IMG/VR virus record: IMGVR_UViG_2061766007_000148 | Source: an uncultured virus (IMG/VR IMGVR_UViG_2061766007_000148) | Taxonomy: Duplodnaviria; Heunggongvirae; Uroviricota; Caudoviricetes | DNA: 30,797 bases | Reading direction: 5' to 3' (one strand) | Shown here: positions 406 through 30,520 of the stretch, in pieces | Numbering within the stretch: the stretch's first letter is position 1 | How the letters are laid out: every line of letters begins with the position of its first letter | Translations under genes and position numbers: made by a program | Notes under the pieces: model-generated | What the model saw: only the letters and a program-made list of their open reading frames with translations | Told to the model about the DNA's origin: nothing | The model's database searches: none

Positions 406-409
406 TATT

Positions 410-3461: not shown

Positions 3462-3462
3462 T

Positions 3463-3885: not shown

Positions 3886-3903
3886 AGAAATATTCGGGGG
3901 AAT

Positions 3904-4347: not shown

Positions 4348-4366
4348 ACGGATAACGGGGGTAATA

Positions 4367-4534: not shown

Positions 4535-4565
4535 ATCTGTATTTAGGGAAAAGGGGATTGAAAAA

Positions 4566-5102: not shown

Positions 5103-5117
5103 GGGGGAAATTACAAA

Positions 5118-14721: not shown

Positions 14722-14892
14722 AATTTAGTATTATTCAATATCATATTTATACTATAACTATACCTTTTGTCAGCATTTGTTACATATGATTATTTATAGT
14801 ATGACCACTTACATACAATTAATCACTATTATCTCAAATCGGTGTATTGGTTATCACCGTATGACAGCGTTTTGAGAGTGCAGGTGATATAA
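14722..14892. promoter_or_regulatory. Divergent promoter/switch region
   Basis: AT-rich; inverted TATA-like elements ATACTATAA (14749-14757) and TTATAGTAT (14794-14802); GTATGAC twice (14799, 14859); AGGTGA RBS at 14882. Confidence 0.6.
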
Positions 14893-15141
14893 TTGATCGA
14901 AAAAACAACTGTAAAACCGCGGGGTTATGAACAACCCCAAACCAAGACCCTTTTGGTCAGTGTCAGATTACCCGTCGATATCGTATCCGAGATTGACATA
15001 AGGGCTGAACAGGAGATGCGCACACGTTCAAATTATGTCTATAAACTGTTTATGGACAGTTGGAATCGTATGCATGAGGTAAAATATACCCCGATGCGTA
15101 AGAATCTGAACGGGTGCATTGTTGAAAATGTAGAAAATTAA
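14893..15141 (+). CDS. Ribbon-helix-helix regulator (first gene of the right operon)
   Basis: LVSVRLPVDIVSEIDIRAEQEMRTRSNYVYKLF is a typical RHH; TTG start with AGGTGA RBS. Confidence 0.8.
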   Translation: MIEKTTVKPRGYEQPQTKTLLVSVRLPVDIVSEIDIRAEQEMRTRSNYVYKLFMDSWNRMHEVKYTPMRKNLNGCIVENVEN

Positions 15142-15170
15142 TACGGATTTCTTAAAATTCGGAGATTAAT

Positions 15171-15557
15171 ATGACAGATACTATATGTGATGAAAAAGTG
15201 TCGACAGGATCGCCAGACTCGGAGACACCCGCATACCTCATTGACGTAACCAGTGCATACGAATACTGTGACTGGTTGGGCAATATCCGCGGACGTGAAG
15301 AGTTCACCGATCAGGTTGTCAGAACAGAAGACCTTCCCACAGAACTCACCGGATGGCGTGATGCCTATCTGCAAGCTCTTTTTATGAGGAATGAACGGTT
15401 AGAACTCGGAATCGAGGGGAAAATTATCTGGATTTGCGCAAACATCTGCAAATTTAAGCCGATAACCAAAAAGCACAGCGACCCCCGAAACGTGAAATAC
15501 ATAAAAGTCGGGTTTATGACACATGTCAAACCCATCCGCGGAGTTGAGAACACATGA
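15171..15557 (+). CDS. Hypothetical protein, family D (paralog of 20183)
   Basis: GGAG RBS; AYLIDV..WICANICKFKP aligns with AWFIDV..WISSNIYRCKP. Confidence 0.75.
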   Translation: MTDTICDEKVSTGSPDSETPAYLIDVTSAYEYCDWLGNIRGREEFTDQVVRTEDLPTELTGWRDAYLQALFMRNERLELGIEGKIIWICANICKFKPITKKHSDPRNVKYIKVGFMTHVKPIRGVENT

Positions 15558-15802
15558 AATGGACACGAGACTTCACGGAGCCGCCAGAAGACCCCGACGT
15601 GTTTGAGACCTCGGTTCTCAAAGCCGTAGAGATGATAAGAGACGACGGTTCGATTTATGTATCTCACAAAGACATCTGCCGCTACAACAGATGGAATTTC
15701 TCGCGAAGAACTTCGCATAGAATCGGAAGAGTTCTTAACAGTAAATTCTCGCTGATTCGGGTGAGTAACCGCACAATCTACATGATGCCGGAGGCGGCAT
15801 GA
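15554..15802 (+). CDS. Putative winged-helix DNA-binding protein, family C (paralog of 26113)
   Basis: DGSIYVSHKDICRYNRWNFSRRTSHRIGRVL; ATGA overlap. Confidence 0.75.
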   Translation: MKWTRDFTEPPEDPDVFETSVLKAVEMIRDDGSIYVSHKDICRYNRWNFSRRTSHRIGRVLNSKFSLIRVSNRTIYMMPEAA

Positions 15803-16041
15803 ATCGCCGCACGTATGTTGAGTCCGTGGGATTCGTGATTCAGCTCCGCAACGGTGATGAGTGGACTGCCGTCAATGAGGAGGAGACCTACGAGTCAAAA
15901 GGACTTGTTGCAACTACCCGCGACCTTGACCTCCTGAACACAATCTCGTGTGGCATAACTCAGCTGTTCGATGAGATCGAGGATTTGGAGAAATGGGTTG
16001 AACGACACAGGGCAAAACTCACAGAAGGTAAGGAAGAATGA
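15799..16041 (+). CDS. Hypothetical protein
   Basis: GGAGG RBS, ATGA overlap. Confidence 0.7.
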   Translation: MNRRTYVESVGFVIQLRNGDEWTAVNEEETYESKGLVATTRDLDLLNTISCGITQLFDEIEDLEKWVERHRAKLTEGKEE

Positions 16042-16083
16042 ACGATGAACAACTGAGAACACTGTTGATGGAGGTATTGCACT

Positions 16084-16533
16084 ATGACTGACAATCAGAC
16101 CGAAGACTACGACCCGCAAAAACACATCAGTCCATACGGATTCGGACTTTTGGGTGAGATTGTCTCCGACAGCGAACCCGCGGATTTACCCCTGCCGAGA
16201 TACCTTGTGTACAGCAAGCTCAAAGCAGTCGAAAACGCACGTTACAAGCTGTCAATTGCCGTCGGAAGCGACATCCTGAGAGCCGAGAAAGGCATCACCG
16301 CCGAAGACGAAAAACTTCTGAAATCCCTGCAATCCGCGGAGATATGTATCAGAGACGCATACGAACGTCTTGAAGATGTCTGGGATGTCTACACAAAAAC
16401 AATTGACGGATTCATGTATATGCGTGCAAAACGGGAAGCATACCTTGACGCGCTTGAAGCGCTCAGTAAAGGAAGAACGCTTTCGATAGACATCCCGCAA
16501 AAAACGGAAAAACCGGTGTATCGGTATGAATGA
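16084..16533 (+). CDS. Helical-hairpin protein, family A
   Basis: ISPYGFGLLGEI and ITAEDEKLLKSLQSA motifs; GGAGGT RBS. Confidence 0.75.
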   Translation: MTDNQTEDYDPQKHISPYGFGLLGEIVSDSEPADLPLPRYLVYSKLKAVENARYKLSIAVGSDILRAEKGITAEDEKLLKSLQSAEICIRDAYERLEDVWDVYTKTIDGFMYMRAKREAYLDALEALSKGRTLSIDIPQKTEKPVYRYE

Positions 16534-16894
16534 TATTTCGATGGATATGCTCAGCATATATTCCGCGGAACACCTGAGAAGGTTTTTAAGCATGATGGGC
16601 GCGTCACACGACATGTTTCTTGCGATAAGCAACATCATGAAAAAGCGTGCGGAATTATCCGAATTTACCGAAAATCTCAACCGCGGATTAAAATTCGGGG
16701 AAGAGAACACCGATGATCCGTTATCGAATACCGACAGGAAACTGTTGAAACTGCTTGAAAACTCGGAAACGTCGTTTGCCGAGATATCAAACCATCTGAA
16801 TTCAGCTTATGAAATATATTGTAAAACCATGGAGCCTTTGTACAGAATTTACGATAACAGCCAGATCCCCACAGGTTACCATGACGGAGAATGA
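16526..16894 (+). CDS. Helical-hairpin protein, family A
   Basis: LSNTDRKLLKLLENS motif; overlapping start. Confidence 0.75.
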   Translation: MNDISMDMLSIYSAEHLRRFLSMMGASHDMFLAISNIMKKRAELSEFTENLNRGLKFGEENTDDPLSNTDRKLLKLLENSETSFAEISNHLNSAYEIYCKTMEPLYRIYDNSQIPTGYHDGE

Positions 16895-17193
16895 TTGATA
16901 TGACAATTAGAGGTTTATTTACCAAAAAAGAAAAAGACAGTGAAGTAGTCGAATACACCAAAGCGCTCTTTTCGCTTGGAACAACTCTGACCCTGCTGAT
17001 AATACTCACTTTTGCACTGGTCGGAAGAATGATACTTCACCACGAACAGCTCTTGACTTTCCCGTTTGATTATGCGGAATTCGTATTGTTACCGATACTC
17101 GGAGTGTTTGTTCTCTACACGTACCTTACTGCCGTTGAGATTTATGAAAAACTCTCCGACGAGACAAAATTTGTGAGAGTTCACGGAGCATAA
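16891..17193 (+). CDS. Membrane protein (2 TM)
   Basis: Two hydrophobic helices; ATGA overlap. Confidence 0.7.
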   Translation: MIDMTIRGLFTKKEKDSEVVEYTKALFSLGTTLTLLIILTFALVGRMILHHEQLLTFPFDYAEFVLLPILGVFVLYTYLTAVEIYEKLSDETKFVRVHGA

Positions 17194-17217
17194 TCAAAAA
17201 AATACGGGAGACAACAT

Positions 17218-17634
17218 ATGCCTGCAATATATCCTCATCCGGAAACTCAGCGTGTGGAATCCGAGATTCAGAAAATAGATAAAGTCTATGCCGACGGATG
17301 GTTACTCTACGATGCCGCGGAAAGAATCTCGCAGAGTGTGGCGGCAGTCGGTAATCTTCTGCGCTCACTTCGTAACAATCTCGGAGATCCCGGTATTGCC
17401 GCACAGCTCAAACAGAATGCCGACGACATCAAACTCATCATGTATCTCGAACGGATTGAAGAGACTCTTCAACCCTGCGGAGATATTCTGACAAAATGCG
17501 AAGATACCGTTCGGGATGTCAGAAACGGTCTTGTCCAGATAAACTACAAAAAGACCGTTCCTCAACCCGTAGACAACGGATTTGTGCAAACCAATCTTGC
17601 CGACCATGACGCAAATCGGGAGGACACACCATGA
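17218..17634 (+). CDS. Helical-hairpin protein, family A (divergent)
   Basis: QNADDIKLIMYLERI motif; GGGAG RBS. Confidence 0.7.
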   Translation: MPAIYPHPETQRVESEIQKIDKVYADGWLLYDAAERISQSVAAVGNLLRSLRNNLGDPGIAAQLKQNADDIKLIMYLERIEETLQPCGDILTKCEDTVRDVRNGLVQINYKKTVPQPVDNGFVQTNLADHDANREDTP

Positions 17635-18035
17635 GTAACGAAATCCCTGAGAACGTCTCCGACGGCAACACCGGGGAATACCGTCTCACTCGAAACGGAT
17701 GGATAATCTTAGGTGAAATTCTCAAAAACGGATGGTGGGATTGGATGCCTACATATTCTAAGTTTGATATGACTCTCGGCACCCTGAACGAGTCCATTCT
17801 GAAACTGAAAAAAGAAGCGACATTCAATGCTCAAAACAACGTGAACAACCTCGATGTGCTTAAACTCATCGAGGCTTTGGAAAACGCAAAGGAGGGTATT
17901 GAGGACAGTTACGCGAAAGTCACCGATGCCATAAATGTTTTTGAGGAGATAATTTCGGGAATCGAGGAAGTTGACGAGTCTGAAAAATTCGACGATGAAT
18001 TCATACAGCGTTGCAAAGGGGAGGCGGACATATGA
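17631..18035 (+). CDS. Helical-hairpin protein, family A
   Basis: LTRNGWIILGEI, KLIEALENA, FEEIISGIEEVDESEKFD. Confidence 0.75.
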   Translation: MSNEIPENVSDGNTGEYRLTRNGWIILGEILKNGWWDWMPTYSKFDMTLGTLNESILKLKKEATFNAQNNVNNLDVLKLIEALENAKEGIEDSYAKVTDAINVFEEIISGIEEVDESEKFDDEFIQRCKGEADI

Positions 18036-18616
18036 CTCCGACACCCTACAAACTCCGCAATGAAATCTGTGAGACCGTCGCGGATATTCAGGCGGATTTG
18101 GAAACCCTGTATGAGTGGTATGAGAACTACAAAATCGATACTGACTCGAAAGATGAACTCAAGACCATCCGCGAACACTTTACCGATGTCGGGGACAAAC
18201 TCGAAAACATCCAGAGCGATGATTACAGATTTCTCGACAATCATCTCAAATATGAACTCCTCGGAAAATGGTCTCGGATGTCCTTATCCGTAAAAAAATC
18301 GCTCTCGAAAATCGGGCAGGGCGACATGACCAGACTCCGTATAGATACCGAAAAAGAGCGTGAAAACCTGTTGGATGTCATCGACGGCGCTTGGACATAT
18401 TACAGTTTTGTCCTCGGCAGGATTCACGAAGTGACGGGCACAACCGAGCTATCGGCACTGCTCTACGGGTACACCGATGATGAATCGCGTATTGAATGGT
18501 TAATCGACCAATATGTGGATATGAGCAAACTGACCCCGACCGAAACACCTGCCGTGCAACAATCACGGATTCAGGATTCGGTTCGGGAGACAGCCGCGGA
18601 GGAAAACCATGCTTGA
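18032..18616 (+). CDS. Helical protein; N-terminus resembles family B
   Basis: GGAGG RBS, ATGA overlap at 18032; amphipathic helices. Confidence 0.7.
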   Translation: MTPTPYKLRNEICETVADIQADLETLYEWYENYKIDTDSKDELKTIREHFTDVGDKLENIQSDDYRFLDNHLKYELLGKWSRMSLSVKKSLSKIGQGDMTRLRIDTEKERENLLDVIDGAWTYYSFVLGRIHEVTGTTELSALLYGYTDDESRIEWLIDQYVDMSKLTPTETPAVQQSRIQDSVRETAAEENHA

Positions 18617-18722
18617 GGCATATCTCGAAGTTGTGACTTTTGCATACATGTTTCTCCTCGGCGTTGCTGTGGGATTCATTGGATATGTTTTATACAGTAT
18701 AAGGGATTGGAGGTGGGAATAA
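18609..18722 (+). CDS. 37-aa single-TM protein (not in ORF track)
   Basis: MLEAYLEVVTFAYMFLLGVAVGFIGYVLYSIRDWRWE; GGAGG RBS; fills the gap between neighbouring genes exactly. Confidence 0.65.
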   Translation: MLEAYLEVVTFAYMFLLGVAVGFIGYVLYSIRDWRWE

Positions 18723-18723
18723 T

Positions 18724-19299
18724 ATGGAATTTATTCTTATTGGCGGAGCAGGTTTCGGAATAGGTGTGATTTGCGGAATTGTGGATGCATACCGCATGAA
18801 CAGACTGGATGAACTTGATGAAAAGTCGTCCGTTCGTGAAGCACGCAATTACATCCGCGAAAAACTTCATTATTACAATGCCGATGCCGTCAAAAAAAGA
18901 CTTGAAGAAGAACGTGAGAAAGACAAATTGAAAGTTGAAATTAACGACAACATCTCATGTTTAATTCGTGAAATCAAGTCCGATTCGGAGAAAGTACGCG
19001 AGATTGACCGCGGATATTCCCGGTTAAAACAACAATTGTTGTTGTTTAAAGAGCAGATACAGGTAAATGAAAACATTCCGCATTCACCTCAAGTATTGCC
19101 GGGAAATACCGCTACCAAAAAAATAGTCTGTGAACCGTTACTGTACAGCATACTTCGCAGAATTGAGATTGCATCAATGAAACTTAAAGGATCGCATGAA
19201 CCGTATCTGCTCATGAGATATGAGATTGAGCGTGTTCTTGCCGAGAAAAATATTCATGAATGTTTCGGTATTGAATTGCCGGAGGAGAAAGAGGAATGA
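18724..19299 (+). CDS. N-terminally anchored coiled-coil protein
   Basis: GGAGGTG RBS; Gly-rich N-terminal TM followed by a charged heptad region. Confidence 0.75.
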   Translation: MEFILIGGAGFGIGVICGIVDAYRMNRLDELDEKSSVREARNYIREKLHYYNADAVKKRLEEEREKDKLKVEINDNISCLIREIKSDSEKVREIDRGYSRLKQQLLLFKEQIQVNENIPHSPQVLPGNTATKKIVCEPLLYSILRRIEIASMKLKGSHEPYLLMRYEIERVLAEKNIHECFGIELPEEKEE

Positions 19300-19682
19300 C
19301 AGAGACACAGTGTGATAAAGAAGAATTGCTTGCAATTATTGATAACATGGTCAAAATCATCGACGAAGATCAGATATCACTTCGATATATCAACAGTTTC
19401 CACAGGGACATACTCGACGGACTTGAAAAAATAAATAAATTTTTTAATAATCCGGGAACCAAAACGGGAAAATCCCTGAATAAGGATATTAAAAAATTAG
19501 ATTTATTCTTTGACATGTTAGATTCTCAAAAAGAACTTGCATTCGTCAGACTCGAAAAAACGGGAGAAATACGCAAACTTTGTGAAGAATTATTATTTTG
19601 CATGACATCTGCCAAATCGGTCGATGAAATAGTTAAAAGTTGGGATTATATTCTGAAAAAGAATGGTGAACGGGGTGATTGA
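19296..19682 (+). CDS. Helical protein, family E (paralog of 24268)
   Basis: IDNMVKIIDED..GLEKINKFF..KLDLFF. Confidence 0.7.
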   Translation: MTETQCDKEELLAIIDNMVKIIDEDQISLRYINSFHRDILDGLEKINKFFNNPGTKTGKSLNKDIKKLDLFFDMLDSQKELAFVRLEKTGEIRKLCEELLFCMTSAKSVDEIVKSWDYILKKNGERGD

Positions 19683-19685
19683 AGA

Positions 19686-19949
19686 ATGACATTTTGTTTA
19701 TTCAGGACGCTCTTTGGCACCCCTGAATCTGAAACAGGAGATATAGAGGACGCATGTCTCATCGTCATATTGCCGTCAATCCCCGGATTTATCTGTGCGG
19801 GGCTTTGGATAGCGGCGACATATATCCACAGTTGGATCTTCAATACGGTGCTGTCTGAAAATTGGATTGCCGTGTCGTTTTGTTGGGGATTTGCACTTGG
19901 AATTGCATTGGTAATAACTTGGGTCTTGGTGCTTACCTCAAAATGCTGA
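19686..19949 (+). CDS. Membrane protein (2 TM)
   Basis: GGGGTGA RBS; two hydrophobic helices. Confidence 0.7.
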   Translation: MTFCLFRTLFGTPESETGDIEDACLIVILPSIPGFICAGLWIAATYIHSWIFNTVLSENWIAVSFCWGFALGIALVITWVLVLTSKC

Positions 19950-19964
19950 CCCGGAGGATAAAAG

Positions 19965-20186
19965 ATGGCAGTATTAGTCGTTTATGATGAATGGAGTATG
20001 CTTATAGGCTTATGGACAGGATTCTTCGGGGGTCTTTTAATGGCAGTTCTTATGGGTTTGGTAGGAATGTTGTTTTATGAACCGATATTGAATGCAAAAA
20101 TTATAACAATCTCCTCGTTATTGGCGGGATTTGTTGTGGCAGGTATTGTATATATCATCTGCACTGCGGAGGCGAAATACGAATGA
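19965..20186 (+). CDS. Membrane protein (2 TM)
   Basis: GGAGG RBS; two hydrophobic helices. Confidence 0.7.
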   Translation: MAVLVVYDEWSMLIGLWTGFFGGLLMAVLMGLVGMLFYEPILNAKIITISSLLAGFVVAGIVYIICTAEAKYE

Positions 20187-20686
20187 TATCACCAAATCGC
20201 TGTCAGAACTGCGTGGGCACACACAGAATCAGAGAATTCAACGGAAAAGATTACCGTGTGTCGTCCGGGGATCTGTGTTGGATAACTCATCAGGCAATCC
20301 GCGACAGTGAAATAGATGCCGGATGCGAAAACTACTACGATACCGGTGCCAAGGCATGGTTTATCGATGTTTACTGTGATATCGAGTCCGCCGACCGCAA
20401 CGGAAAACGTATCAAATTCGTTCAGGACAAAGAACCTATTGTCAGGGTAAGGGACATATCTCAGCAATTTGATGAATGGACTGACATTTATTGGGAAGCG
20501 ATGAAACAACTTTCCAAGAGGATGTTTTTGCCCATGAACAACGAAGGAAAATGGATTTCCTCGAATATTTACAGATGCAAACCGAGGAAAGAGACAGAAG
20601 AATACAAAAGCGGCATCCGAACAATTACAGTCTCGTTTAAGACTACACTATTGTTGCATCCGCACGGTATAGGAACAATTTGTTAA
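20183..20686 (+). CDS. Family D protein with an N-terminal Cys (putative Zn) module
   Basis: CQNC..C..C N-terminus followed by a region aligning with 15171. Confidence 0.75.
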   Translation: MISPNRCQNCVGTHRIREFNGKDYRVSSGDLCWITHQAIRDSEIDAGCENYYDTGAKAWFIDVYCDIESADRNGKRIKFVQDKEPIVRVRDISQQFDEWTDIYWEAMKQLSKRMFLPMNNEGKWISSNIYRCKPRKETEEYKSGIRTITVSFKTTLLLHPHGIGTIC

Positions 20687-20687
20687 A

Positions 20688-20939
20688 ATGACCGAAACAG
20701 ACAACAAAATCAAAAATAATCCGAGAGATGAGTTGATTGAAAAAATTACAATCAAACTTCAGGACATTAATTTCCTTATCGAGAGGATTCAGAGATGTAC
20801 CCCTCAAGATACGGATTTTCAGGGAATTACGATTCAGGAATTAAATGATTGTTATGAGGATTTGGTTAAAGGAGAATACCTTTTGGAAATGTTCAGAGTT
20901 CTCATTATCGATGAGGATGATTGGGAGACAATAGTATGA
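20688..20939 (+). CDS. Small helical-hairpin protein, family B
   Basis: IEKITIKLQDINFLI..ITIQEL..LLEMFR, similar to 25172. Confidence 0.7.
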   Translation: MTETDNKIKNNPRDELIEKITIKLQDINFLIERIQRCTPQDTDFQGITIQELNDCYEDLVKGEYLLEMFRVLIIDEDDWETIV

Positions 20940-21352
20940 TTGAGGATACTTTAAGATTAAGCAAACACGGGCGTAAAATCTCAAAAGAGATTGGAAATAT
21001 CTATCTTTTGGAAGATTTGGAAACGCTTGAGGAGAGATTGAGAAAGTACACGGAGTTGATCCATGACAGATACATAGAACTCTCGGAGAAATTTACGGAA
21101 GAGAGAATCGGAGAAGCATCACGGAAAGTGATTACACGGGGAGATTATGACCTCATGAATGTCCTCGGCGTAGGTTACGGAAAGATGGATGCCGCATTAT
21201 ATTCTCTGAAATCCGTTATTGAAGAGTACAAACTGTTCAGGGATAAGATATCCGGTTATGAGAAATATCCGATAAACATGATGAAGGAAGACGAATACGA
21301 AAAAGAAGAGGAATACGAAAAAAAATCAGCAAAACAGGAGAAAACCACATGA
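20936..21352 (+). CDS. Helical-hairpin protein, family A
   Basis: LSKHGRKISKEI, ITRGDYDLMNVL, IEEYK. Confidence 0.75.
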   Translation: MIEDTLRLSKHGRKISKEIGNIYLLEDLETLEERLRKYTELIHDRYIELSEKFTEERIGEASRKVITRGDYDLMNVLGVGYGKMDAALYSLKSVIEEYKLFRDKISGYEKYPINMMKEDEYEKEEEYEKKSAKQEKTT

Positions 21353-21714
21353 TAGACAGCACATACGAATTAAGCCCGTTTGGGAAGAAGATCGCGGAAA
21401 ACCTCACAAAGACAGAGAACACGGAGAATATGCAGTTATTCATGAAGATATTCAGGATGAACTCGGATATCATCTATCACTCTTTTTTGGAGATGGAACA
21501 GGAATTCAAAAAAGAAAGTGACCCTGAACATTCACAGTCAGTAAAGCTCACTCACGGAGATGAAATACTTTACAAACTGCTTGAAAAAACCACTTTCAAA
21601 TTTATGAGTATGTATGAACCTCTGAATTACAACATCGAAGAATACAAAGGGTTTTATGAATCGCTGAAAAGAGTCAACAATCCCGAAATCCTGACACCGC
21701 CGAAGGGGGCATAA
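21349..21714 (+). CDS. Helical-hairpin protein, family A
   Basis: LSPFGKKIA, MEQEFKKE, LTHGDEILYKLLEK. Confidence 0.8.
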   Translation: MIDSTYELSPFGKKIAENLTKTENTENMQLFMKIFRMNSDIIYHSFLEMEQEFKKESDPEHSQSVKLTHGDEILYKLLEKTTFKFMSMYEPLNYNIEEYKGFYESLKRVNNPEILTPPKGA

Positions 21715-21716
21715 TC

Positions 21717-22358
21717 ATGACATCACAGAAAACAACAAAATCAACAACGAAACCAACGACAAAATCAACGACGAAACCAACGACAAAATCAGCAACAAAT
21801 CCCGTAAAGGATACAGCAACGAAAACGACGGATAAGAAAGCCTGTCATTGCAATGACAATTGCGTACGCCACGGAGATTGCGGATGCGAAAACTGCAACG
21901 ACAATCACAACGATGACTATGACTCCTACGGGCGTATGTTACCGATATCTCAAAGGATTTTGGGGCACATTTTATCAGTCGACGACAAGGGATTGGAAGA
22001 TATCAGGAGTATTTTGGAGAATACATCAATAGAACTCAAGATGGGGCATGAATATCTTGAGATGCTTTCAAAGGAAAGGGTTGCAGATCCGAAGGATAAA
22101 GTTATAGACCCGTTTCCCATACCGGACACAAAACTGATTGCAATATTCAAACAGATGGAATCGGACATCCAAAACGCCATGACAGCCTGTGAAGATGCTA
22201 TCTCGGATTTCATCTCTATCAGAGAACATATCGAGGATATGAAAAAAGACGGTCAGGTTTGGAAAGATATTGCAGAATGGTATCTGGGCGAGAAAACGGA
22301 TGAGGAGCAGGATGGTGAAGAGGATGAGGACAATGATGACAACGAGGAGGAATGGTGA
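21717..22358 (+). CDS. Family A protein with N-terminal TTK(S/P) repeats, Cys/His cluster and acidic tail
   Basis: TTKSTTKPTTKSTTKPTTKS; CHCNDNCVRHGDCGCENC; LPISQRILGHI; PDTKLIAIFKQM. Confidence 0.75.
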   Translation: MTSQKTTKSTTKPTTKSTTKPTTKSATNPVKDTATKTTDKKACHCNDNCVRHGDCGCENCNDNHNDDYDSYGRMLPISQRILGHILSVDDKGLEDIRSILENTSIELKMGHEYLEMLSKERVADPKDKVIDPFPIPDTKLIAIFKQMESDIQNAMTACEDAISDFISIREHIEDMKKDGQVWKDIAEWYLGEKTDEEQDGEEDEDNDDNEEEW

Positions 22359-22594
22359 TGACTGAATTATCACAGAATACGGAATTGGTTATCAAAAGCA
22401 TTCACAGTCTTTTGAATGATATCGGTGAGGAAATCGACAAATCCTCACTTTTGATCAGATCCGGTCTAATGACCGAGGAAGAGTTTTACAAAGCACTTCA
22501 GCAATTTGAGTATGAACTAAGCGATTACAGGACATATTGGCATTACCCGCCCGAAGATGAAGATAAATTTTCGGAGTGTGAAGAGGATGACTGA
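22352..22594 (+). CDS. Small helical-hairpin protein, family B
   Basis: IKSIHSLLNDI..MTEEEF..LQQFEYELSDY. Confidence 0.7.
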   Translation: MVMTELSQNTELVIKSIHSLLNDIGEEIDKSSLLIRSGLMTEEEFYKALQQFEYELSDYRTYWHYPPEDEDKFSECEEDD

Positions 22595-22955
22595 TTCAGA
22601 CATCCCGAAAAAAGAAAAAATGCCCGAAAATGCCGAAGAATATCTTCAGGATGTCGTAAATCAACTGAAAAGGTTCGGGGATGTGAGAGTTATAACCGGA
22701 TCTAACGTTGCGGAAACAGAAAACATACCTGAAAATATCGATAGTCTTATTCGGGAGATTGTGAGTCTTCTTGAAGGGCTTGAACACACCTCGGCAAAAC
22801 TGAGCAGATATTTCAGAGATTCGCAATTTGAACCTGTAAGTTACTCGGAGAGTGAACTGGAGGCATACGCAAAAAAACTGCAAAATGCCGATAATGAACT
22901 CAACAACTTCATAGACAAATACACGGATCCCGATCAGTGGTGGGAGATGGCATGA
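22587..22955 (+). CDS. Helical-hairpin protein, family B
   Basis: IREIVSLLEGL..YSESELEAY..LQNADNELNNF; start revised to 22587. Confidence 0.7.
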   Translation: MTDSDIPKKEKMPENAEEYLQDVVNQLKRFGDVRVITGSNVAETENIPENIDSLIREIVSLLEGLEHTSAKLSRYFRDSQFEPVSYSESELEAYAKKLQNADNELNNFIDKYTDPDQWWEMA

Positions 22956-23314
22956 GAACCGACGACAAAAACCTCAGCCCGTTCGGACAGCAGATTGCAG
23001 ACGATGTTGCAATGTCCGAAGTCGGGGAATTGTTTACACAGTTAATCTCCAAATTCAAAGAGCATTCCGACCTAATATATGAGAAATATCTCATTATGCA
23101 ACAGGAATTCAAAAAAGAACCTCTCGATGAATTTAAAGATAAAATTGTTCTTACACAGGGGGATGAGGATTTGTATTACCTCCTCGAAAGAGCCGCATTC
23201 AGAATGATGAGTATGGATACAAATCTGCATGATATGGGATATACGTATTCCAATTTTTGCGATCTTGTTGCCAGATATTCACGAATTAAGACCGGAGATA
23301 TCAACGTTGCCTGA
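22952..23314 (+). CDS. Helical-hairpin protein, family A (closest to 21349)
   Basis: LSPFGQQIA, MQQEFKKE, LTQGDEDLYYLLER. Confidence 0.8.
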   Translation: MRTDDKNLSPFGQQIADDVAMSEVGELFTQLISKFKEHSDLIYEKYLIMQQEFKKEPLDEFKDKIVLTQGDEDLYYLLERAAFRMMSMDTNLHDMGYTYSNFCDLVARYSRIKTGDINVA

Positions 23315-23348
23315 TAAAATCAGCAAAATCTAAAAAAAGGTGGAAAAA

Positions 23349-23699
23349 ATGAGTTTAATTAAAATCGAAAAGAAAAGCATTACGAAAAAAGGCATTATTG
23401 ATGAATTATATACCGCATTCTTTAAGAATCCACAGTTGTTTTCTGTATGGTGTTCCGGAGTCTTCTTTATAGGCATAATTATATTCGGCATGGAATTGTG
23501 GAATATGTATAACCCCGCAGTCTATGAATTTATAGAAACATTTCATGATCCCAACACAACGGAAGAAGATGTCTTATTTGCCTATTGGTGGTTTTTTACC
23601 CTGAATCTTGTGATGTTTGTATATACAACATACCACACATTACAGCTCATAAAAAAGATTCAAGTCTGGAAAAAGAGAGATGAAGAGGAAAAAGCATGA
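23349..23699 (+). CDS. Membrane protein (2 TM)
   Basis: AGGTGG RBS; two hydrophobic helices. Confidence 0.7.
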   Translation: MSLIKIEKKSITKKGIIDELYTAFFKNPQLFSVWCSGVFFIGIIIFGMELWNMYNPAVYEFIETFHDPNTTEEDVLFAYWWFFTLNLVMFVYTTYHTLQLIKKIQVWKKRDEEEKA

Positions 23700-23989
23700 C
23701 AACACCTGAAAAAGATTTTATTATCGACCGAAAAAATCTGATTGACCAGATTCATGAAGAAATCTCGGAGATACAGAGTATTTTTGAAGATATTGAGAGA
23801 AATCTCTCAATTTATACCAAATATGTAGATGCAGATCATTACTCGGACACCTGTTTGAAATGTCATTATTGCGAGTTGGATATGTTCAAAGAAGTGCTCT
23901 GTGTATTTGATGAAAGATACTCAATGTCGGATTGTGACCCGCAAATAGATATTTTGTCAGATAACGGGGATGCCGGGGATGAGGAATAA
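23696..23989 (+). CDS. Acidic helical protein, family B-like
   Basis: IDQIHEEISEI..YSDTCL..; ATGA overlap. Confidence 0.7.
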   Translation: MTTPEKDFIIDRKNLIDQIHEEISEIQSIFEDIERNLSIYTKYVDADHYSDTCLKCHYCELDMFKEVLCVFDERYSMSDCDPQIDILSDNGDAGDEE

Positions 23990-24264
23990 TGGTGGAAAGA
24001 TTTGTGTTTAAAACACCGGTATGGGAATTGGCGGCAATCTCGGCATTTTGCGGTATGACTGCGGCAATTGCATTTTACATAATGAAATTTCACCCGGTTA
24101 TGATTGCGCTTGGAGGAATCGTGTCTTTTGCGGTAATATTTTTCCTGTTGAAAATCACGGATGATATAAACTGCCCGACACTCACATACCTCTCGGAAGA
24201 AGACGTTGAGAAAATCAGAGCATGTCTGATAAAACAAGAGGATAACGATACAAAAGAGGTGTAA
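23989..24264 (+). CDS. Membrane protein (2 TM)
   Basis: TAATG overlap; two hydrophobic helices. Confidence 0.7.
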   Translation: MVERFVFKTPVWELAAISAFCGMTAAIAFYIMKFHPVMIALGGIVSFAVIFFLLKITDDINCPTLTYLSEEDVEKIRACLIKQEDNDTKEV

Positions 24265-24267
24265 ACA

Positions 24268-24534
24268 GTGAACAAAAAAGAACACATGATATCCGACATC
24301 GACAAGATGATCGATATAATATGTAAGGATTTTAACCGCGCAAAGCAGGGTTTAAAAGAATTAAAGCAATTCTATCATACTGACCCCGATATTAACGAAG
24401 AAAGACTGTTTCTTTTATTCGGTGAAATCTTGGAGCTGTCCCGTCACATCAGCAGATTGGCAGACAATCCCATCCTTTATCAGTCGGATCAAACCATAAT
24501 AGGCAAAGCATTCAAAGATGACCCGCAGGAGTGA
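24268..24534 (+). CDS. Helical protein, family E
   Basis: GAGGTG RBS, GTG start; IDKMIDIICKD..GLKELKQFY..RLFLLF. Confidence 0.7.
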   Translation: MNKKEHMISDIDKMIDIICKDFNRAKQGLKELKQFYHTDPDINEERLFLLFGEILELSRHISRLADNPILYQSDQTIIGKAFKDDPQE

Positions 24535-24836
24535 CGACGATATAAATTACCGTTAGATTTTAGGAGATATTATGAAAACGATAACTGAACTTAGAGAAAT
24601 GGCACAGCAGATTAAGGCATTCGCAGTCAACAAAAAACAGTGCGGCAGATTAAATAATCTGTTTGTTGAGGATTGTAAGGATTTTATCTTTAACAGCAAC
24701 GGCACCGCGTGCAGTATCAGGTTTAACAATGTTGTTATTGATGATGTGAATGAGTATTTTGATAGTATTATCGTATTTAACTCAAATGATGAAAAAATCG
24801 ACGAGATAAAACTATTAACACAGGAGTGACGACGAT
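24526..24836 (+). repeat. 16-bp direct repeat CAGGAGTGACGACGAT flanking a single gene
   Basis: Exact copies at 24526-24541 and 24821-24836. Confidence 0.9.
24572..24829 (+). CDS. Hypothetical protein inside the direct repeat
   Basis: AGGAG RBS; beta-rich and AT-rich; unlike neighbouring families. Confidence 0.7.
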   Translation: MKTITELREMAQQIKAFAVNKKQCGRLNNLFVEDCKDFIFNSNGTACSIRFNNVVIDDVNEYFDSIIVFNSNDEKIDEIKLLTQE

Positions 24837-24882
24837 GCCCCGGAAAAAGCTGACCCCAGAAGAGGAGGAAAACAATGGTTAA
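24835..24882 (+). pseudogene. 15-codon remnant of a 25172-like paralog
   Basis: MPRKKLTPEEEENNG* versus MAKKKLTPEEEEKRK; also similar at DNA level. Confidence 0.6.
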
Positions 24883-25153
24883 GACAAAATTAACTTTTGA
24901 TGAGGAGTTGGAACGTAGACAGATTCTTGAACAGATCGGAAATGAATTGGAAGCGGTAAGATCCCTGTTATATGAGATGGCAAAATACTATGTTCCGCAA
25001 ACATACGATATAGAAAATTCAACAAATAAACAACTGATTAAAAAATTGGATAAAATTCAGAAAGTTGAAGGGGAAATAATAGAGTTTCGTGAGAAACACA
25101 TCCCCGATGAAATTTGGTATATGATTCCGAGAAAAGAACCTGTAAAAGTCTGA
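24875..25153 (+). CDS. Family B protein (close tandem paralog of 25172)
   Basis: KLTFDEELERRQILEQI..TNKQL..FREKHIPD..W. Confidence 0.8.
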   Translation: MVKTKLTFDEELERRQILEQIGNELEAVRSLLYEMAKYYVPQTYDIENSTNKQLIKKLDKIQKVEGEIIEFREKHIPDEIWYMIPRKEPVKV

Positions 25154-25171
25154 ATATGGAGGTGATAAATA

Positions 25172-25432
25172 ATGGCAAAAAAGAAATTGACCCCCGAAGA
25201 GGAGGAAAAACGTAAACAAATCCTTGAGAGTATCAACAACAAACTGGAGGATATCAATTGTATGCTGAGATTGATGGCGTCCTGCTACACTCCGAAGATG
25301 TTTGAGTTGGATGAGTGCACAAACAAACAGTTGGAACGGTTCTTAAAAGGATTGAATAAGGTAGATATAAAATTGGAAAATTTCCGAGAAAGGCACATCC
25401 CCGACGTAAATTGGGAATTTGCTGAATTATGA
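25172..25432 (+). CDS. Family B protein
   Basis: GGAGGTGA RBS; KLTPEEEEKRKQILESI..TNKQL..FRERHIPD..W. Confidence 0.8.
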   Translation: MAKKKLTPEEEEKRKQILESINNKLEDINCMLRLMASCYTPKMFELDECTNKQLERFLKGLNKVDIKLENFRERHIPDVNWEFAEL

Positions 25433-25443
25433 GGTGAACCTGA

Positions 25444-25722
25444 ATGAAACCATCGGAAAATGACAAACTAATAAAAGTTAAAGGAATCATCGAGGGGCTG
25501 ACAATAGAGGGTATCAACAAAAAATTGAACACTCTCAAATCAGTTTCCGCAGACATTTCCGAACGTATGACACATGCGGAGTTCTGCCCCGAAAACTTTA
25601 CGATTACGGAAATGCTCGCGTATGAGAATTATCTGTTATCCCTGAATTCCGAATTATCGGATATCAAAACAAAGTTACTCTTGCCGGATGAATGGAGGTT
25701 AAATTATAATGCCAACAACTGA
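25444..25722 (+). CDS. Family B protein
   Basis: GAGGTGA RBS; IEGINKKLNTL..FTITEMLAY..LNSELSDI. Confidence 0.75.
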   Translation: MKPSENDKLIKVKGIIEGLTIEGINKKLNTLKSVSADISERMTHAEFCPENFTITEMLAYENYLLSLNSELSDIKTKLLLPDEWRLNYNANN

Positions 25723-26116
25723 AGAACTCAAAGAAGGTGTCATAAGCGACGGCGCATGTCTGATTTTAAACTACCTGACGGCATGTACGGATAATCAGAC
25801 GCATTTAACTCTGTTAAAATCGGCAAGATACCATATCGGTGAGTATCATAAAGAGCTCATGAAAGCAAAAATCGGTATTGACGCAATAATCCAAATCAGG
25901 CGTCAACAAAATAATCCCCCGATATCGGGGGATAACAAACTGTCATGGATTCTTCAAAGGAAATGTGAGGATATGACCAATATATTAAACAGATTGGATT
26001 TTTCGATATCGGCATATGATCAGGTAATTAATCAGATATCCGAGATTCACGACGGGCATTACATCCCGAACCGCAAAGACGGACAAAACCAGTACAGTGG
26101 AGATGTTAACAAATGA
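25709..26116 (+). CDS. Helical-hairpin protein, family A
   Basis: GGAGGT RBS; ISDGACLILNYL; ISGDNKLSWILQR; YDQVINQISEIHD. Confidence 0.75.
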   Translation: MPTTEELKEGVISDGACLILNYLTACTDNQTHLTLLKSARYHIGEYHKELMKAKIGIDAIIQIRRQQNNPPISGDNKLSWILQRKCEDMTNILNRLDFSISAYDQVINQISEIHDGHYIPNRKDGQNQYSGDVNK

Positions 26117-26370
26117 GTTACACGATAAAACGCAACATAAAAGAGACCCCGACAGACCCGACCGAATTTGAAAATGCGGTAAGGTTTACAATCCAAAGGA
26201 TGGTTAAAGACGGGTCTATATATGCATCATATCGCGACATCTTCTACTATAACAGATGGACTTTTTCCGGTCACACATCCCGGAGAATCGGGCGTGTGCT
26301 TCGCAACAAGCTCAACATGAAACAGATAAATCCGAGATGCTATAAAATCCCAGAGGAGTTGATGGCATGA
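26113..26370 (+). CDS. Putative winged-helix DNA-binding protein, family C
   Basis: DGSIYASYRDIFYYNRWTFSGHTSRRIGRVL, clear paralog of 15554. Confidence 0.75.
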   Translation: MSYTIKRNIKETPTDPTEFENAVRFTIQRMVKDGSIYASYRDIFYYNRWTFSGHTSRRIGRVLRNKLNMKQINPRCYKIPEELMA

Positions 26371-26777
26371 ATGAAGAAAAGAAAATCATCAACACATTTC
26401 CCTTAACCCTTGACGGTATGGAAATCCTTGACGGAATTGCTAATTTTGAATTCTGGACGGAGAATCATGCAATGTCCGCAATTGATGAAAAAAACAGAGA
26501 GATTGAGGAGTTGATTAAAAGAGCCGAAGAACTTGTCAAAACAAACCCGTGCCCGCACAATGAGGGAGTTCTCAGAATCCTGAAAGGATTAAAGACAAAA
26601 GCCGAGGAACTCACGGACACGATATACCGCGGCATTGAAGATTATATGGATTTATTTGCGGATTTCAACGAAATTCACTTCAAAGAGGCATTTGACGATG
26701 ATGATTTGAGACTTTACAATGCGGAATTGTTTGATGAGGAATATCTGAGAAAATACTCAGAGGAGTCACAAAGATGA
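26367..26777 (+). CDS. Helical-hairpin protein, family A
   Basis: LTLDGMEILDGI; NEGVLRILKGL; FNEIHFKEAFD. Confidence 0.75.
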   Translation: MNEEKKIINTFPLTLDGMEILDGIANFEFWTENHAMSAIDEKNREIEELIKRAEELVKTNPCPHNEGVLRILKGLKTKAEELTDTIYRGIEDYMDLFADFNEIHFKEAFDDDDLRLYNAELFDEEYLRKYSEESQR

Positions 26778-27151
26778 CGGATGATGAATTATACAGGTAT
26801 CAGATAAGTTCTGAGGGTCTGAAAGCACTTAACGGTATTATCAAATACACTGAGTATGATCAGCTGGACGGAACATACATGGCAATCGGGGCTAAAGCCG
26901 AGGAGGTCAAAAGACAGATAGACAGAATTAATAGTTTAAAAGCGGATTACAAGCCGCTGTCAGAGGAGGATGAAGAACTCCTCGGTATCTTGGAGAGCGC
27001 ATATGAGCGGTTGGATGAACTTGCGGATGATGCTTACACAGCCGCCGAAGAATTTGACGAAATTATCTCGGCATTGCAGACTATTCATGACCGCGAGTAT
27101 TTTGACGTAAATGACATAAATCAGATGGAAGGGAGAGCTTATAGAAAATGA
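26774..27151 (+). CDS. Helical-hairpin protein, family A
   Basis: ISSEGLKALNGI; LSEEDEELLGILESA; FDEIISALQTIHDREYFD. Confidence 0.75.
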   Translation: MTDDELYRYQISSEGLKALNGIIKYTEYDQLDGTYMAIGAKAEEVKRQIDRINSLKADYKPLSEEDEELLGILESAYERLDELADDAYTAAEEFDEIISALQTIHDREYFDVNDINQMEGRAYRK

Positions 27152-27417
27152 AAAGTCTCATATTCAAATATGATTCCGAGGGAGCGTTCTTGGAAAATAT
27201 CTTCCGAATTGTATTGTTAATCAACAGTTTATTCCTGCTTTGTATATTTACGGGAGATACATTCACAAGCATAGTAATATTTGAGGGAGTTATAGTGGTT
27301 GAACTCACATATCAAGTGATTACCGAATTTACCGAGATGTTGGCACCGTATAAGGCACCGGATGAATCGTGGTGGTCGGTAATTTACAGAATATTCAGTC
27401 CGGGGATAAATCCATGA
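27148..27417 (+). CDS. Membrane protein (2 TM)
   Basis: ATGA overlap; hydrophobic hairpin; weakly similar to 27414. Confidence 0.7.
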   Translation: MKSLIFKYDSEGAFLENIFRIVLLINSLFLLCIFTGDTFTSIVIFEGVIVVELTYQVITEFTEMLAPYKAPDESWWSVIYRIFSPGINP

Positions 27418-27629
27418 AAGGTTTTCTGTATATCGATAAGAATGAAGACCCTGACGCGGATATAAAGAATATGTTCATAATATTACTGTTTCTGGGCGGA
27501 TTTGTGATACTCACAATATTAACGAATATCCCGACAAGTGCGGCGGTATTCTTGGGAATATTGGGTTTGGATATACTCAGTTACGGAGTAAAAGATTTTG
27601 TAAACGAAATAAGGAGAATTAAGTTATGA
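27414..27629 (+). CDS. Membrane protein (2 TM)
   Basis: ATGA overlap at 27414; hydrophobic hairpin. Confidence 0.7.
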   Translation: MKGFLYIDKNEDPDADIKNMFIILLFLGGFVILTILTNIPTSAAVFLGILGLDILSYGVKDFVNEIRRIKL

Positions 27630-28129: not shown

Positions 28130-28306
28130 ATGATATACGTAACACAAGAAGAGTTTGAGGCAACAGCACTCAACATGATTTACGCTATCGGACAGTTATC
28201 TAACACTTTACCGTCTGAAAGCACGATAGAACGATGTAAATCGGAATTACTCAAATCTGGTATGATAAAAATAATAAATGAAGGGGGAAAATATGAGAAT
28301 AATTAA
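28130..28306 (+). CDS. Small hypothetical protein, 58 aa (not in ORF track)
   Basis: MIYVTQEEFEATALNMIYAIGQLSNTLPSESTIERCKSELLKSGMIKIINEGGKYENN; GAGGT RBS. Confidence 0.6.
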   Translation: MIYVTQEEFEATALNMIYAIGQLSNTLPSESTIERCKSELLKSGMIKIINEGGKYENN

Positions 28307-28570
28307 TTTATATCATGGTAACGATACATTATATGATGATTCCCATATTTTGTCGCCGACAGGATGGATCGCCAGATCCCCGCGGGACACTACTATCTAT
28401 GAAGTTGATGAGCTATATAGTTTTCCCCAGAATTCGTTTGCTACACCAGTTGTAACTGAGGGTAAAACCGATAACTTTTTTTATGCAAAAATAAAAGTGA
28501 CGCCTGACGCCACCGGGACATTGCCTGAAAAAATTTTGACACCCCACTTTTGCAAAAAAGTGGGGTGTCA
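28293..28570 (+). CDS. Hypothetical protein, 5' part, running into an assembly gap
   Basis: AAGGGGGAAAAT RBS before MRIINL; open to the gap. Confidence 0.55.
28537..28570. repeat. Perfect 15-bp hairpin TGACACCCCACTTTT-GCAA-AAAAGTGGGGTGTCA
   Basis: Seen directly; ends exactly at the start of the N run (28571-29121). Confidence 0.85.
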
Positions 28571-29121: not shown

Positions 29122-29330
29122 CTTATTGTAAACAAACCCTTGAGGCATTCAGAAATAAGGGTTATTATATCTCGGATGAGCTTGCCCGTGAACTGATTAT
29201 CGAGTATGTCCGCATGTTGCATGATACCGGAAAAGATGACGAGGTTTGGGAACGTCGTCAGAGAGAATATGAATTAGAATACGGTGGCACGGTAGAATAT
29301 GGCGGATTTAATAAGGATTGGTGCACATAA
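29122..29330 (+). CDS. 3' part of a hypothetical gene emerging from the gap
   Basis: Open frame ending in a TAATG overlap with the integrase start. Confidence 0.55.
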
Positions 29331-30520
29331 TGCCCTTCAGCAGAGATTCCAAATATTCTCCTGAACTTTCCATCTCACGGAATTTGAGACTCGGAAACAT
29401 CACGGAGGATGATGCGGAAATAATCCAGAATTATATCAACCACATAGGGGTGGTAAATAACCTCGGTGAGTCACGTAAAGCTACAATTGCATCCCTGTTG
29501 TGCGCATTAAACAAAACGGAACCTCGTGTACCTGTTCGAGGACTGACAAAAGAGATTATCTATCAGAAAGTAACCAATGTCAAATCAGCGGAATTCACTC
29601 AGAACACGCAAAGATCCATAATCTCGATTGGCAAGGCATTCTGGGTATATCTGATTAAAACTAAGATAATCAACGGTAATATCGAAGATATTAAAAACAT
29701 CAAAATACCCCCTATAAACTTTGAAACGACATCTCCCGATGAGATATTCACACCGTCGGAAGTCCTTGAGATGATTCGATGCGCAAACAATACTCGCGAC
29801 AGAGCATTTATCGCAACACTGTATGAAAGCGCTTGCCGGATTTCCGAGATTGCAACACTCAGATGGAAAGATGTATTTCCTGATAAATACGGCGCGAAAA
29901 TCTGGGTCTTTGACCATAAAGCAAAAAAAAGAAAGTTTTGCAGACTGATAATTGCCGCACCGCACCTTAATGAATGGAGGAATCAGTATGAGTCCTTTTC
30001 TTCGGCAAGCGGAGATAATTTGGTTTTTGTGACTCTTTATAAACAAAAACCACTCAAATACAGAACATATGATATAATCTTTAAAAGAGTCGCAAAAAAA
30101 GCAGGGATTACCAGACCGGTTCATCTTCATCTCATGCGGAAAACACGTATAACACATATGGTTCGTGAAAATTACAACGAATCTATCATCAAACTTGTTG
30201 CATGGGGAAATCCCAACACACGTATGATGCCGACATATACCAGACTCTCTGAAGACAATATCGATGCGGAACTTTTGAGTCACGGCGGCATCGTAGACCG
30301 TGAAGACGTTGTCGAGTCCATCAAATCACAGAAATGTATGCGGTGCGGCAACATCATAGCACCCGACCAGAAATACTGCCCGCATTGCGGAATGAGCACA
30401 GATCCGTCACTCATTAACCGTGAAATGAGCATAAACCCTGAACTCCTCACAAAAATATTACAGATTATTCAGGATCAGCAAAATCCCGAAAATTCGGACA
30501 ATGCGGGGGGTAAAAAATGA
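29330..30520 (+). CDS. int: Tyrosine recombinase/integrase with C-terminal zinc ribbon
   Basis: RDRAFIATLYESACRISE (catalytic R), HLMR (HxxR), VAWG..PTYTRL (Y nucleophile); CMRC..CPHC. Confidence 0.92.
   Translation: MPFSRDSKYSPELSISRNLRLGNITEDDAEIIQNYINHIGVVNNLGESRKATIASLLCALNKTEPRVPVRGLTKEIIYQKVTNVKSAEFTQNTQRSIISIGKAFWVYLIKTKIINGNIEDIKNIKIPPINFETTSPDEIFTPSEVLEMIRCANNTRDRAFIATLYESACRISEIATLRWKDVFPDKYGAKIWVFDHKAKKRKFCRLIIAAPHLNEWRNQYESFSSASGDNLVFVTLYKQKPLKYRTYDIIFKRVAKKAGITRPVHLHLMRKTRITHMVRENYNESIIKLVAWGNPNTRMMPTYTRLSEDNIDAELLSHGGIVDREDVVESIKSQKCMRCGNIIAPDQKYCPHCGMSTDPSLINREMSINPELLTKILQIIQDQQNPENSDNAGGKK

Follow-up and report, generated by a model that had tools for sequence, protein, structure and literature searches.

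We analysed a 30,797-nucleotide stretch of DNA (hereafter the window) listed in IMG/VR as record IMGVR_UViG_2061766007_000148 of an uncultured virus (Duplodnaviria; Heunggongvirae; Uroviricota; Caudoviricetes), in which about 39 small plus-strand open reading frames (ORFs) are densely packed between 14.9 and 28.3 kb, with many start/stop overlaps and with GGAGG-like ribosome-binding sites before nearly all of them. An earlier note on this DNA had picked out 11 of these ORFs as a paralogous family of helical-hairpin proteins. All 11 are present at the given coordinates on the plus strand, and strong Shine-Dalgarno sites precede the ATGs at 20936, 22952 and most of the others. Naming each ORF by its start position and judging by sequence comparison, we count nine of the 11 as firm homologs, 21717 as a probable one and 17218 as a marginal one, which would give ten supported copies, possibly 11, in a single plus-strand operon. 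The firm members fall into subgroups A (20936, 21349 and 22952), B1 (26367 and 26774), B2 (16084 and 16526), B3 (17631) and B4 (25709). All 11 ORFs are listed here with values from the searches described below, and with orthologs from a syntenic metagenome locus (L003) or other sources:

16084..16533, plus strand: member, B2, 149 amino acids, isoelectric point (pI) 5.0; leave-one-out E 7e-7, rank 1; both motifs; orthologs P0011, P0012 and P0017
16526..16894, plus strand: member, B2, 122 amino acids; leave-one-out E 9.5e-8, rank 1; central motif LSNTDRKLLKLL; ortholog P0020, 61% identical; start overlaps the end of the 16084 member by 8 nt
17218..17634, plus strand: marginal, unproven member, 138 amino acids; P 0.0023; neither strict motif
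17631..18035, plus strand: member, B3, 134 amino acids, net charge -15; leave-one-out E 1.8e-7; L003 ortholog 51% identical
20936..21352, plus strand: member, A, 138 amino acids from the ATG at 20936, which a Shine-Dalgarno site precedes (the ORF opens at TTG 20921); phmmer 1.6e-9 against 22937 and 3.8e-9 against 21349; L003 ortholog 98.6% identical
21349..21714, plus strand: member, A, 121 amino acids, modelled; AlphaFold2 confidence (pLDDT, predicted local distance difference test) 90.5; A against B1 7.7e-8
21717..22358, plus strand: probable member, fused form, 213 amino acids; hhalign P 1.2e-5; leave-one-out E 1e-5 to 1e-3
22952..23314, plus strand: member, A, 120 amino acids from the ATG at 22952, with a Shine-Dalgarno site; phmmer 7.9e-21 against 21349; both motifs
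25709..26116, plus strand: member, B4, 135 amino acids; leave-one-out E 4.5e-6, rank 1; B1 against B4 1.3e-4 over 106 columns; L003 ortholog 34% identical
26367..26777, plus strand: member, B1, 136 amino acids, net charge -17; first gene of a translationally coupled pair with 26774; phmmer 1.8e-9 against 26774; own ortholog clade
26774..27151, plus strand: member, B1, 125 amino acids, net charge -17, modelled; AlphaFold2 pLDDT 86.5; leave-one-out E 3.6e-11

Kinship of the listed proteins

Two short motifs had drawn attention to these ORFs. The central turn motif, described as common to all 11, is specific to them: its strict form, [LI][ST]xxDxxLxxxL, occurs in 6 of the 11 and in 0 of the 28 other operon ORFs, whereas sets of 11 shuffled family sequences contain it 0.019 times on average (1,000 shuffles). 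The N-terminal motif had been ascribed to nine ORFs; as [LI][ST]xxGxx[ILMAV] it was counted in 7 of the 11, and again in 0 of the 28.

An all-against-all phmmer comparison of the 39 operon ORFs returned 18 pairs at E<1e-3, and 0 in each of 10 shuffled sets. Leave-one-out hidden Markov models (HMMs), each built from the nine core members minus the one tested and run against 468 sequences (39 real, 39 reversed and 390 shuffled), placed eight of the nine core members first; 26367 came second, after 21717, and all reversed and shuffled decoys ranked lower. ORF 21717 was matched in every one of these searches (E 1e-5 to 1e-3) and aligned in hhalign with the 37-sequence family profile over 111 columns (P 1.2e-5, probability 81%); it combines TTKP/TTKS repeats and a Cys/His-rich N-terminus with the family domain at about residues 69-186 and an acidic tail. 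ORF 17218 was not retrieved by the leave-one-out HMM (E 0.57, rank 20), and its own four-sequence profile aligned with the family over 86 in-register columns at P 0.0023, against a best P of 0.0048 among 10 whole-family control comparisons. The earlier figure of about 11 copies is thus borne out for nine firmly and for one probably, with 17218 left at the margin.

To compare subgroups we used hhalign on enriched profiles, consisting of the subfamily profiles plus external homologs and L003 orthologs. Subgroup A aligned with B1 at P 7.7e-8 and with B2 at 3.8e-8; among the B subgroups the values were 6.4e-10 (B1-B3), 2.6e-8 (B1-B2), 1.1e-8 (B3-B2) and 1.3e-4 (B1-B4), and the alignments mostly ran full length over about 100 in-register columns. 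The best of 50 control comparisons with other helical operon ORFs reached P 0.0092. These data bear directly on the objection that the proteins are not one family and resemble each other through generic coiled-coil composition in a helix-rich operon. Low pairwise identities (13-27% to the first sequence), a fold that is a common one and the inseparability of 17218 from controls lend that objection some colour; however, the other helical, acidic ORFs of the operon fail to align (their best P in 50 comparisons is 0.009, and values between family members run from 1e-4 to 6e-10), the true core members outrank every reversed and shuffled decoy, and both motifs are confined to listed ORFs. We hold the objection to be extremely improbable and consider pure coiled-coil bias, which the earlier note had itself raised against its proposal, to be largely refuted as the cause of the similarity.

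Predicted fold and history of the copies

AlphaFold2 models were built for 26774, from a mixed 14-sequence alignment, and for 21349, from a subgroup-A-only alignment. The 26774 model (pLDDT 86.5; predicted template modelling score, pTM, 0.68) has helices at residues 13-24, 28-57 and 64-107 and a small beta-bridge, near the termini, that joins residues 9-10 to 109-110; the 21349 model (pLDDT 90.5) has helices at residues 10-20, 25-57 and 69-110. The two were compared by helix layout and by common top structural matches, and their layout is the same, so that the members are predicted to be rods in which a short N-terminal helix packs against an antiparallel hairpin of long heptad coiled-coil helices. 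The two motifs correspond to N-cap boxes of helix 1 (S12) and helix 3 (S63), the central one lying at the hairpin tip. Across 37 sequences, 7 of the 30 columns of helix 2 and 13 of the 44 of helix 3 are hydrophobic, with a periodicity that peaks at 3.5 residues in both long helices, in keeping with the long heptad helix described earlier; the remaining positions in these helices are mostly variable and often acidic. Conserved positions are almost all core (a/d) residues, and the surfaces have diverged. The members are soluble, acidic proteins of about 120-150 amino acids (pI 4.2-6.2), with no transmembrane-like segment. The shared three-helix layout and the full-length subfamily profile alignments agree with the proposal of a diversified expansion of one fold.

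Structural searches with these models returned long-helix proteins. The top match in VIA for both was IpaB (3u0c_B), at Z 11.0 (root-mean-square deviation 2.4 over 100 residues) and 9.4, and further top matches included CT398, the DMS3-RDM1 complex and designed bundles; VIA states a noise level of about Z 13 for long-helix proteins, and all Z scores found lie below it. The structural check proposed in the earlier note thus yielded matching helix layouts in two models, but Foldseek against the PDB and BFVD gave nothing at E≤0.001.

A profile search of 1.84 billion representative proteins gave 31 hits at E≤1e-3. One of them, P0022 (842 amino acids), was discarded as a repetitive protein matched via short coiled stretches. 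BLAST related 29 of the remaining 30 to specific window paralogs at 23-99% identity; the other, P0031, had no BLAST match, yet it groups with subfamily A in the tree described below. No domain was found in the N-terminal extension of P0012. Word-based searches gave 3, 2 and 3 homologs for 26774, 21349 and 17218, respectively; scans of representative-genome contigs with 26774, and of IMG/VR with 26774, 21349 or the protein pair designated D, gave nothing. An alignment match of the D pair in a bacterial metagenome-assembled genome (L001) covered 11 residues only and was treated as spurious, and ORF 4566-5102, which has an 8-residue word in common with the D pair, is unrelated to it.

The metagenome locus L003 is syntenic with the window and, in the range covered, keeps 8 of 8 members in unchanged order. 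Window positions 18012-24872 and L003 positions 391-7225 are 96.5% identical in DNA over 6.9 kb, the flanks are 65-83% identical or undetectable, and the switches between mosaic blocks coincide with gene boundaries (where 18011 starts and immediately before 24875). In the flanks, the L003 orthologs of 17631, 25709, 26367 and 26774 share 51, 34, 46 and 38% protein identity, and the counterparts of 26367/26774 are adjacent there too (9612-9992 and 9986-10357); upstream of that pair L003 carries three extra ORFs (8013-9615). A sheep-gut contig shows another mosaic pattern: it matches the window at 14800-24401 (133 differences), is missing 24541-25188 and departs from the window beyond 25432.

In a maximum-likelihood tree of 52 rows, from which 17218, P0022 and the 97-amino-acid fragment P0023 were excluded, every window paralog falls in its own clade with orthologs from other elements, subgroup A is monophyletic, and the two subfamilies that had been proposed (21349/22952/20936 and 17631/26367/26774/25709) are recovered. 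From this clustering it follows that the copies arose before these elements split from one another. Tandem and segmental duplications of old date enlarged the family, and old segmental duplications are also suggested by recurring gene orders in which a Cys-rich or basic protein is followed by a family pair. The ratio of nonsynonymous to synonymous divergence (dN/dS), a measurement that the earlier note had called for, is below 1 wherever measurable: in the conserved block, where changes are few, it lies at 0.09-0.73, and diverged orthologs give 0.14-0.26 where it can be measured, with dS near saturation. Within these limits (few changes in the block, saturated dS beyond it), dN/dS gave no sign of positive selection. 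Every paralog is under purifying selection, in a family that is constrained yet fast-evolving at the protein level. Together with the separate ortholog clades, this selection indicates that the copies are old, and they look non-redundant.

The operon, its element and possible roles

Three further genes belong to the setting of the family:

14893..15141, plus strand: operon gene 1, weak CopG-like ribbon-helix-helix protein; Pfam RHH_5 E 7e-4, below cutoff
26113..26370, plus strand: basic protein, 85 amino acids, pI 10; paralog of 15554-15802, directly upstream of the 26367/26774 pair
29318..30520, plus strand: tyrosine integrase with a C-terminal zinc ribbon, at the distal end of the array; Pfam Phage_integrase 2.9e-19, zinc-ribbon models, phrog_1 integrase

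A 170-bp AT-rich divergent intergenic region lies directly before the ribbon-helix-helix gene, and the start of an N6/N4 DNA methylase lies after the integrase (a C5 methylase takes this place in L003). Pfam, PHROG, NCBIfam and PADLOC gave almost no matches among the operon proteins. The operon is carried by an integrase-bearing mobile element of ruminant-gut metagenomes: sequences close to window 16084-23314 occur in 20 sequencing runs from 9 studies, 17 of the 20 contain at least half of the sampled words from that range, and 13 of these 17 are bovine, sheep or other animal gut metagenomes (six studies, the possible source study not among them). The earlier note had spoken of an archaeal element. 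An archaeal host is plausible because the integrase matches in the phage collection are mostly archaeal viruses (8 of 10 records, 6 distinct viruses, 22-27% identity); the highest-scoring NCBIfam model of the integrase, well under its cutoff, is archaeal XerA. Metatranscriptome contigs of 366, 213 and 502 nt, all from one library, lie on 20183, 20936, 21349 and 21717 (span 20397-21899, 90-99% likeness) and are a weak hint of transcription of the operon, with DNA carry-over possible.

What the rods do can be approached from four features taken together: core-only conservation, diverged surfaces, the absence of a catalytic or nucleic-acid-binding signature (no enzyme or DNA-binding family was matched in Pfam, PHROG, PADLOC and PDB profile searches) and translationally coupled neighbours, which overlap start to stop by 4-8 nt and have Shine-Dalgarno sites. 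On these grounds we tentatively propose, with somewhat less than even confidence, that the members are non-redundant protein-binding adaptor or scaffold rods, possibly in pairs. The coupled neighbours 16084/16526, 20936/21349 and 26367/26774 would probably act as pairs or as a larger heteromeric set, and the rods would serve a process of the element itself.

Several points weigh against this proposal. The suggested pairing draws on gene adjacency and fold only, and oligomerisation is not demanded by the sequence, because intramolecular three-helix packing accounts for the narrow a/d stripe. The layout of a small regulator, many small ORFs and an integrase at the end resembles accessory regions of temperate viruses, whose small proteins often target the host, and the element itself may be a virus or another integrative element. 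Moreover, members in the variable flank have dN values of 0.42-0.70, against 0.12-0.37 for 26113, 27626, 27847 and the integrase, a faster divergence that would also fit host-directed diversification.

The main alternative is a host-directed repertoire, the host-interaction or anti-defence decoys first imagined for these genes, in which each rigid acidic rod would bind and neutralise a different host protein (of defence, replication, transcription or division) during establishment or induction. The higher dN of the members in the variable flank speaks for it, as do the family's place in a long array of small, mostly unannotated ORFs between control region and integrase, its strong acidity (net charge down to -17), the divergence of surfaces while cores were conserved, and the swapping of flanks carrying B-type members between otherwise 96.5%-identical elements. 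Such a repertoire is possible but rather unlikely in our estimate, given that no copy-number turnover was seen (8 of 8 members in L003, in one-to-one orthology), that dN/dS is well below 1 wherever measurable and that no PADLOC or PHROG anti-defence model matches. As far as these comparisons go, stable one-to-one orthology and purifying selection seem to fit fixed, non-redundant roles better than fast-turnover decoys.

The family is not alone in having multiplied, as in-element paralog groups account for about 21-23 of the operon's 39 ORFs. The basic proteins 15554-15802 and 26113-26370 (82-85 amino acids, 46-47% identical, pI 9.4-10, phmmer 9.4e-21) form one such group; 26113 has no family or structure match in Pfam or the PDB, and its leads in the protein atlas are all below 0.9. 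Twice a basic protein is followed by family genes (15554, 15799, 16084/16526; and 26113, 26367/26774), and in L003, too, the B1 pair has a 26113-like gene upstream, the three extra ORFs standing between them. This order, and the contrast between basic proteins and acidic members, could mean that the members are regulatory partners, anti-repressors or co-regulators, of 15554, 26113 and the ribbon-helix-helix protein, and help to set whether the element stays integrated or becomes active. We find this highly improbable: the putative DNA binding of the basic proteins finds no backing in Pfam, the PDB or the atlas, two or three regulators would hardly need ten partners, and the A-type members have no such basic neighbour.

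Several small ORFs with transmembrane-like hydrophobic stretches (16891, 18724, 19686, 19965, 23340, 23989 and 27369 among them) are interspersed in the operon, and they raise the prospect that the members are structural or assembly subunits of a particle or a membrane-remodelling apparatus, a hetero-polymeric coiled-coil set acting with these small membrane proteins, which in principle could resemble prefoldin, a scaffold or ESCRT-III/PspA. A fixed and conserved paralog set would suit such a role, and the generic structural matches include prefoldin (Z 9.4), Vipp1/PspA (Z 9.1-9.3) and ESCRT-III Vps24 (Z 8.1). We regard it as unlikely nonetheless, since all those Z scores lie below the helical noise level of about 13, none of the Snf7, PspA and Prefoldin models reaches its cutoff (1 of 37 members hits Prefoldin_2, E 0.01), the members are acidic and bear no basic membrane-binding face, and no capsid, portal or other hallmark gene was recognised among the window proteins in Pfam and PHROG scans. 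Bolder still, and decidedly improbable, is the conjecture that the ten paralogs make up a hetero-oligomeric coiled-coil machine of a kind not seen before, encoded by a mobile element or virus of an archaeon, probably a methanogen, of the ruminant gut. Adjacent pairs would form four-helix modules, and these would join with the small membrane proteins to build a rod or lattice that serves egress, transfer or the remodelling of the host.

A fixed, orthologously conserved paralog set in a small region suggests a multi-part system rather than random gene accretion. More than half of the 39-ORF operon consists of in-element paralog groups, the largest of which is this stable ten-member rod-fold set in a narrow group of ruminant-gut elements. 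The genes of gut-archaeal mobile elements are still mostly without known function; finding the partners of the rods would annotate a sizeable share of these elements. It might also bring to light a new module for assembly or host control, in microbes with a possible bearing on rumen methane production.

Other ORFs of the operon form further paralog groups. A second helical family, C, absent from the earlier note's list (20688-20939, 22557-22955, 24875-25153, 25172-25432 and 25444-25722; 83-132 amino acids), is linked at E 4e-21 between 24875 and 25172 and at 3e-7 to 7e-4 among its other members, with 22352-22594 and 23696-23989 as possible additions; it shows no alignment with the main family (P>0.02). 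Copy number varies in this family: L003 has no counterpart of 24875 and the sheep-gut contig skips 24541-25188. There are also a Cys-rich pair (15171-15557 and 20183-20686, E 6e-10) and a pair of small proteins (27148-27417 and 27369-27629, E 5.5e-5), of which 27369 has a hydrophobic stretch.

Upstream of the operon lie a 2331-amino-acid ORF without a domain match and, at the left end, ORFs with Kelch/BNR-like repeats, which are underlain by tandem repeats of about 144 nt at 1188-2086. The large ORF (5118-12113) has no Pfam, PHROG, NCBIfam or PADLOC match and no evident signal peptide; it has a charged, coiled-coil-like N-terminus, Pro/Thr/Ser/Lys-rich repeats at 11353-11610, which the TTKP/TTKS repeats of 21717 resemble at the DNA level (61-72%), and a Lys-rich C-terminal tail. 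Between it and the operon, in an oppositely oriented gene group, a DUF1828 protein (12142-12534, minus strand) matches the candidate defence model PDC-M24B (E 5.7e-30) and phrog_5059 (E 3.9e-26). Runs of N occur at 1372-1381, 1526-1535, 1684-1693 and 28571-29121, the longest (551 nt) inside ORF 28278-29330.

Comparison with known families

The earlier note's author did not recognise the family, and our library searches agree. No Pfam, PHROG, NCBIfam, PADLOC or PDB family matches it: a PDB sequence profile search (E≤1) returned only coiled-coil noise, PADLOC gave 0 hits for the 11 listed ORFs, the protein atlas had no usable match for 26774, and of the 49 Pfam families found with 37 members at E≤0.1, none was matched by more than 3 of the 37 (those beyond the best 25 are 24 single-member matches). 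The one weak PHROG match, phrog_21564 (function not assigned; E 3e-4), concerns 26774 only. The listings and opening lines of abstracts returned by a full-text literature search contained no description of such a family. The family is new, narrowly distributed and of a generic fold, and is in no library searched.

A kinship with MarR was considered and dropped. The wording and order of the family motifs (LTxxG... then LSxxE..L..LL) resemble those of the C-terminal helices of MarR-type proteins, a likeness that arises because both motifs are generic N-cap boxes. No winged-helix domain precedes the motifs, both models show a rod of three helices and nothing else, and MarR is absent from the PDB profile search (E≤1), from the Pfam hits of the window and from the best 25 of the 49 families. 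An HTH_AsnC-type model was matched by 1 of 37 members (E 0.019), and no MarR or helix-turn-helix (HTH) family was found for window proteins.

The best superpositions were with the coiled-coil region of IpaB, a type III secretion translocator, and with the hairpins of CT398/HP0958 (4ilo_B, Z 10.8 and 8.6, after 3u0c_B above). Sequence identities are 5-11%, the targets are larger and their contexts unrelated; the resemblance is a common arrangement and no evidence of kinship. WXG100 proteins (EsxA/EsxB), which are type VII secretion substrates, are similar in being helix-turn-helix hairpins of about 100 residues encoded as tandem diverged paralog pairs in several copies, and EsxA chains appear among weak Foldseek rows (E values >1). 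Our models have the hairpin, but with an additional N-terminal helix and a terminal beta-bridge; W-x-G occurs in 0 of 37 members, the turn being usually [LI][ST]xx[DE], the WXG100 profile is not among the best 25 of the 49 Pfam families and hits no window protein at E≤0.01, and no secretion-system genes were recognised nearby in the Pfam scan.

ESCRT-III, PspA and Vipp1 proteins share with the family a long alpha-hairpin core and the existence of many co-assembling paralogs. Their VIA rows (8qfv_0, Z 9.3 and 8.2; 4whe_A, Z 9.1; 6zh3_B, Z 8.1) lie within helical noise, the Snf7 and PspA Pfam models match no window protein at E 0.01 and are not among the best 25 of the 49 families, and the family members differ in being about half the length and acidic. 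Prefoldin (archaeal GimC) offers hairpin-like coiled-coil rods with short beta elements and paralogous subunits in a hetero-oligomer. The prefoldin structures 2zdi_A and 1fxk_C score Z 9.4, again within helical noise, and Prefoldin_2 matches only 20921 (17.6 bits against a cutoff of 27.6, E 0.004-0.01), 1 of 37 members. Prefoldin itself carries its beta hairpins between the N- and C-terminal coiled-coil helices. The topology predicted for the present family is the reverse, with an all-helical tip between the long helices and a beta-bridge that would join the termini.

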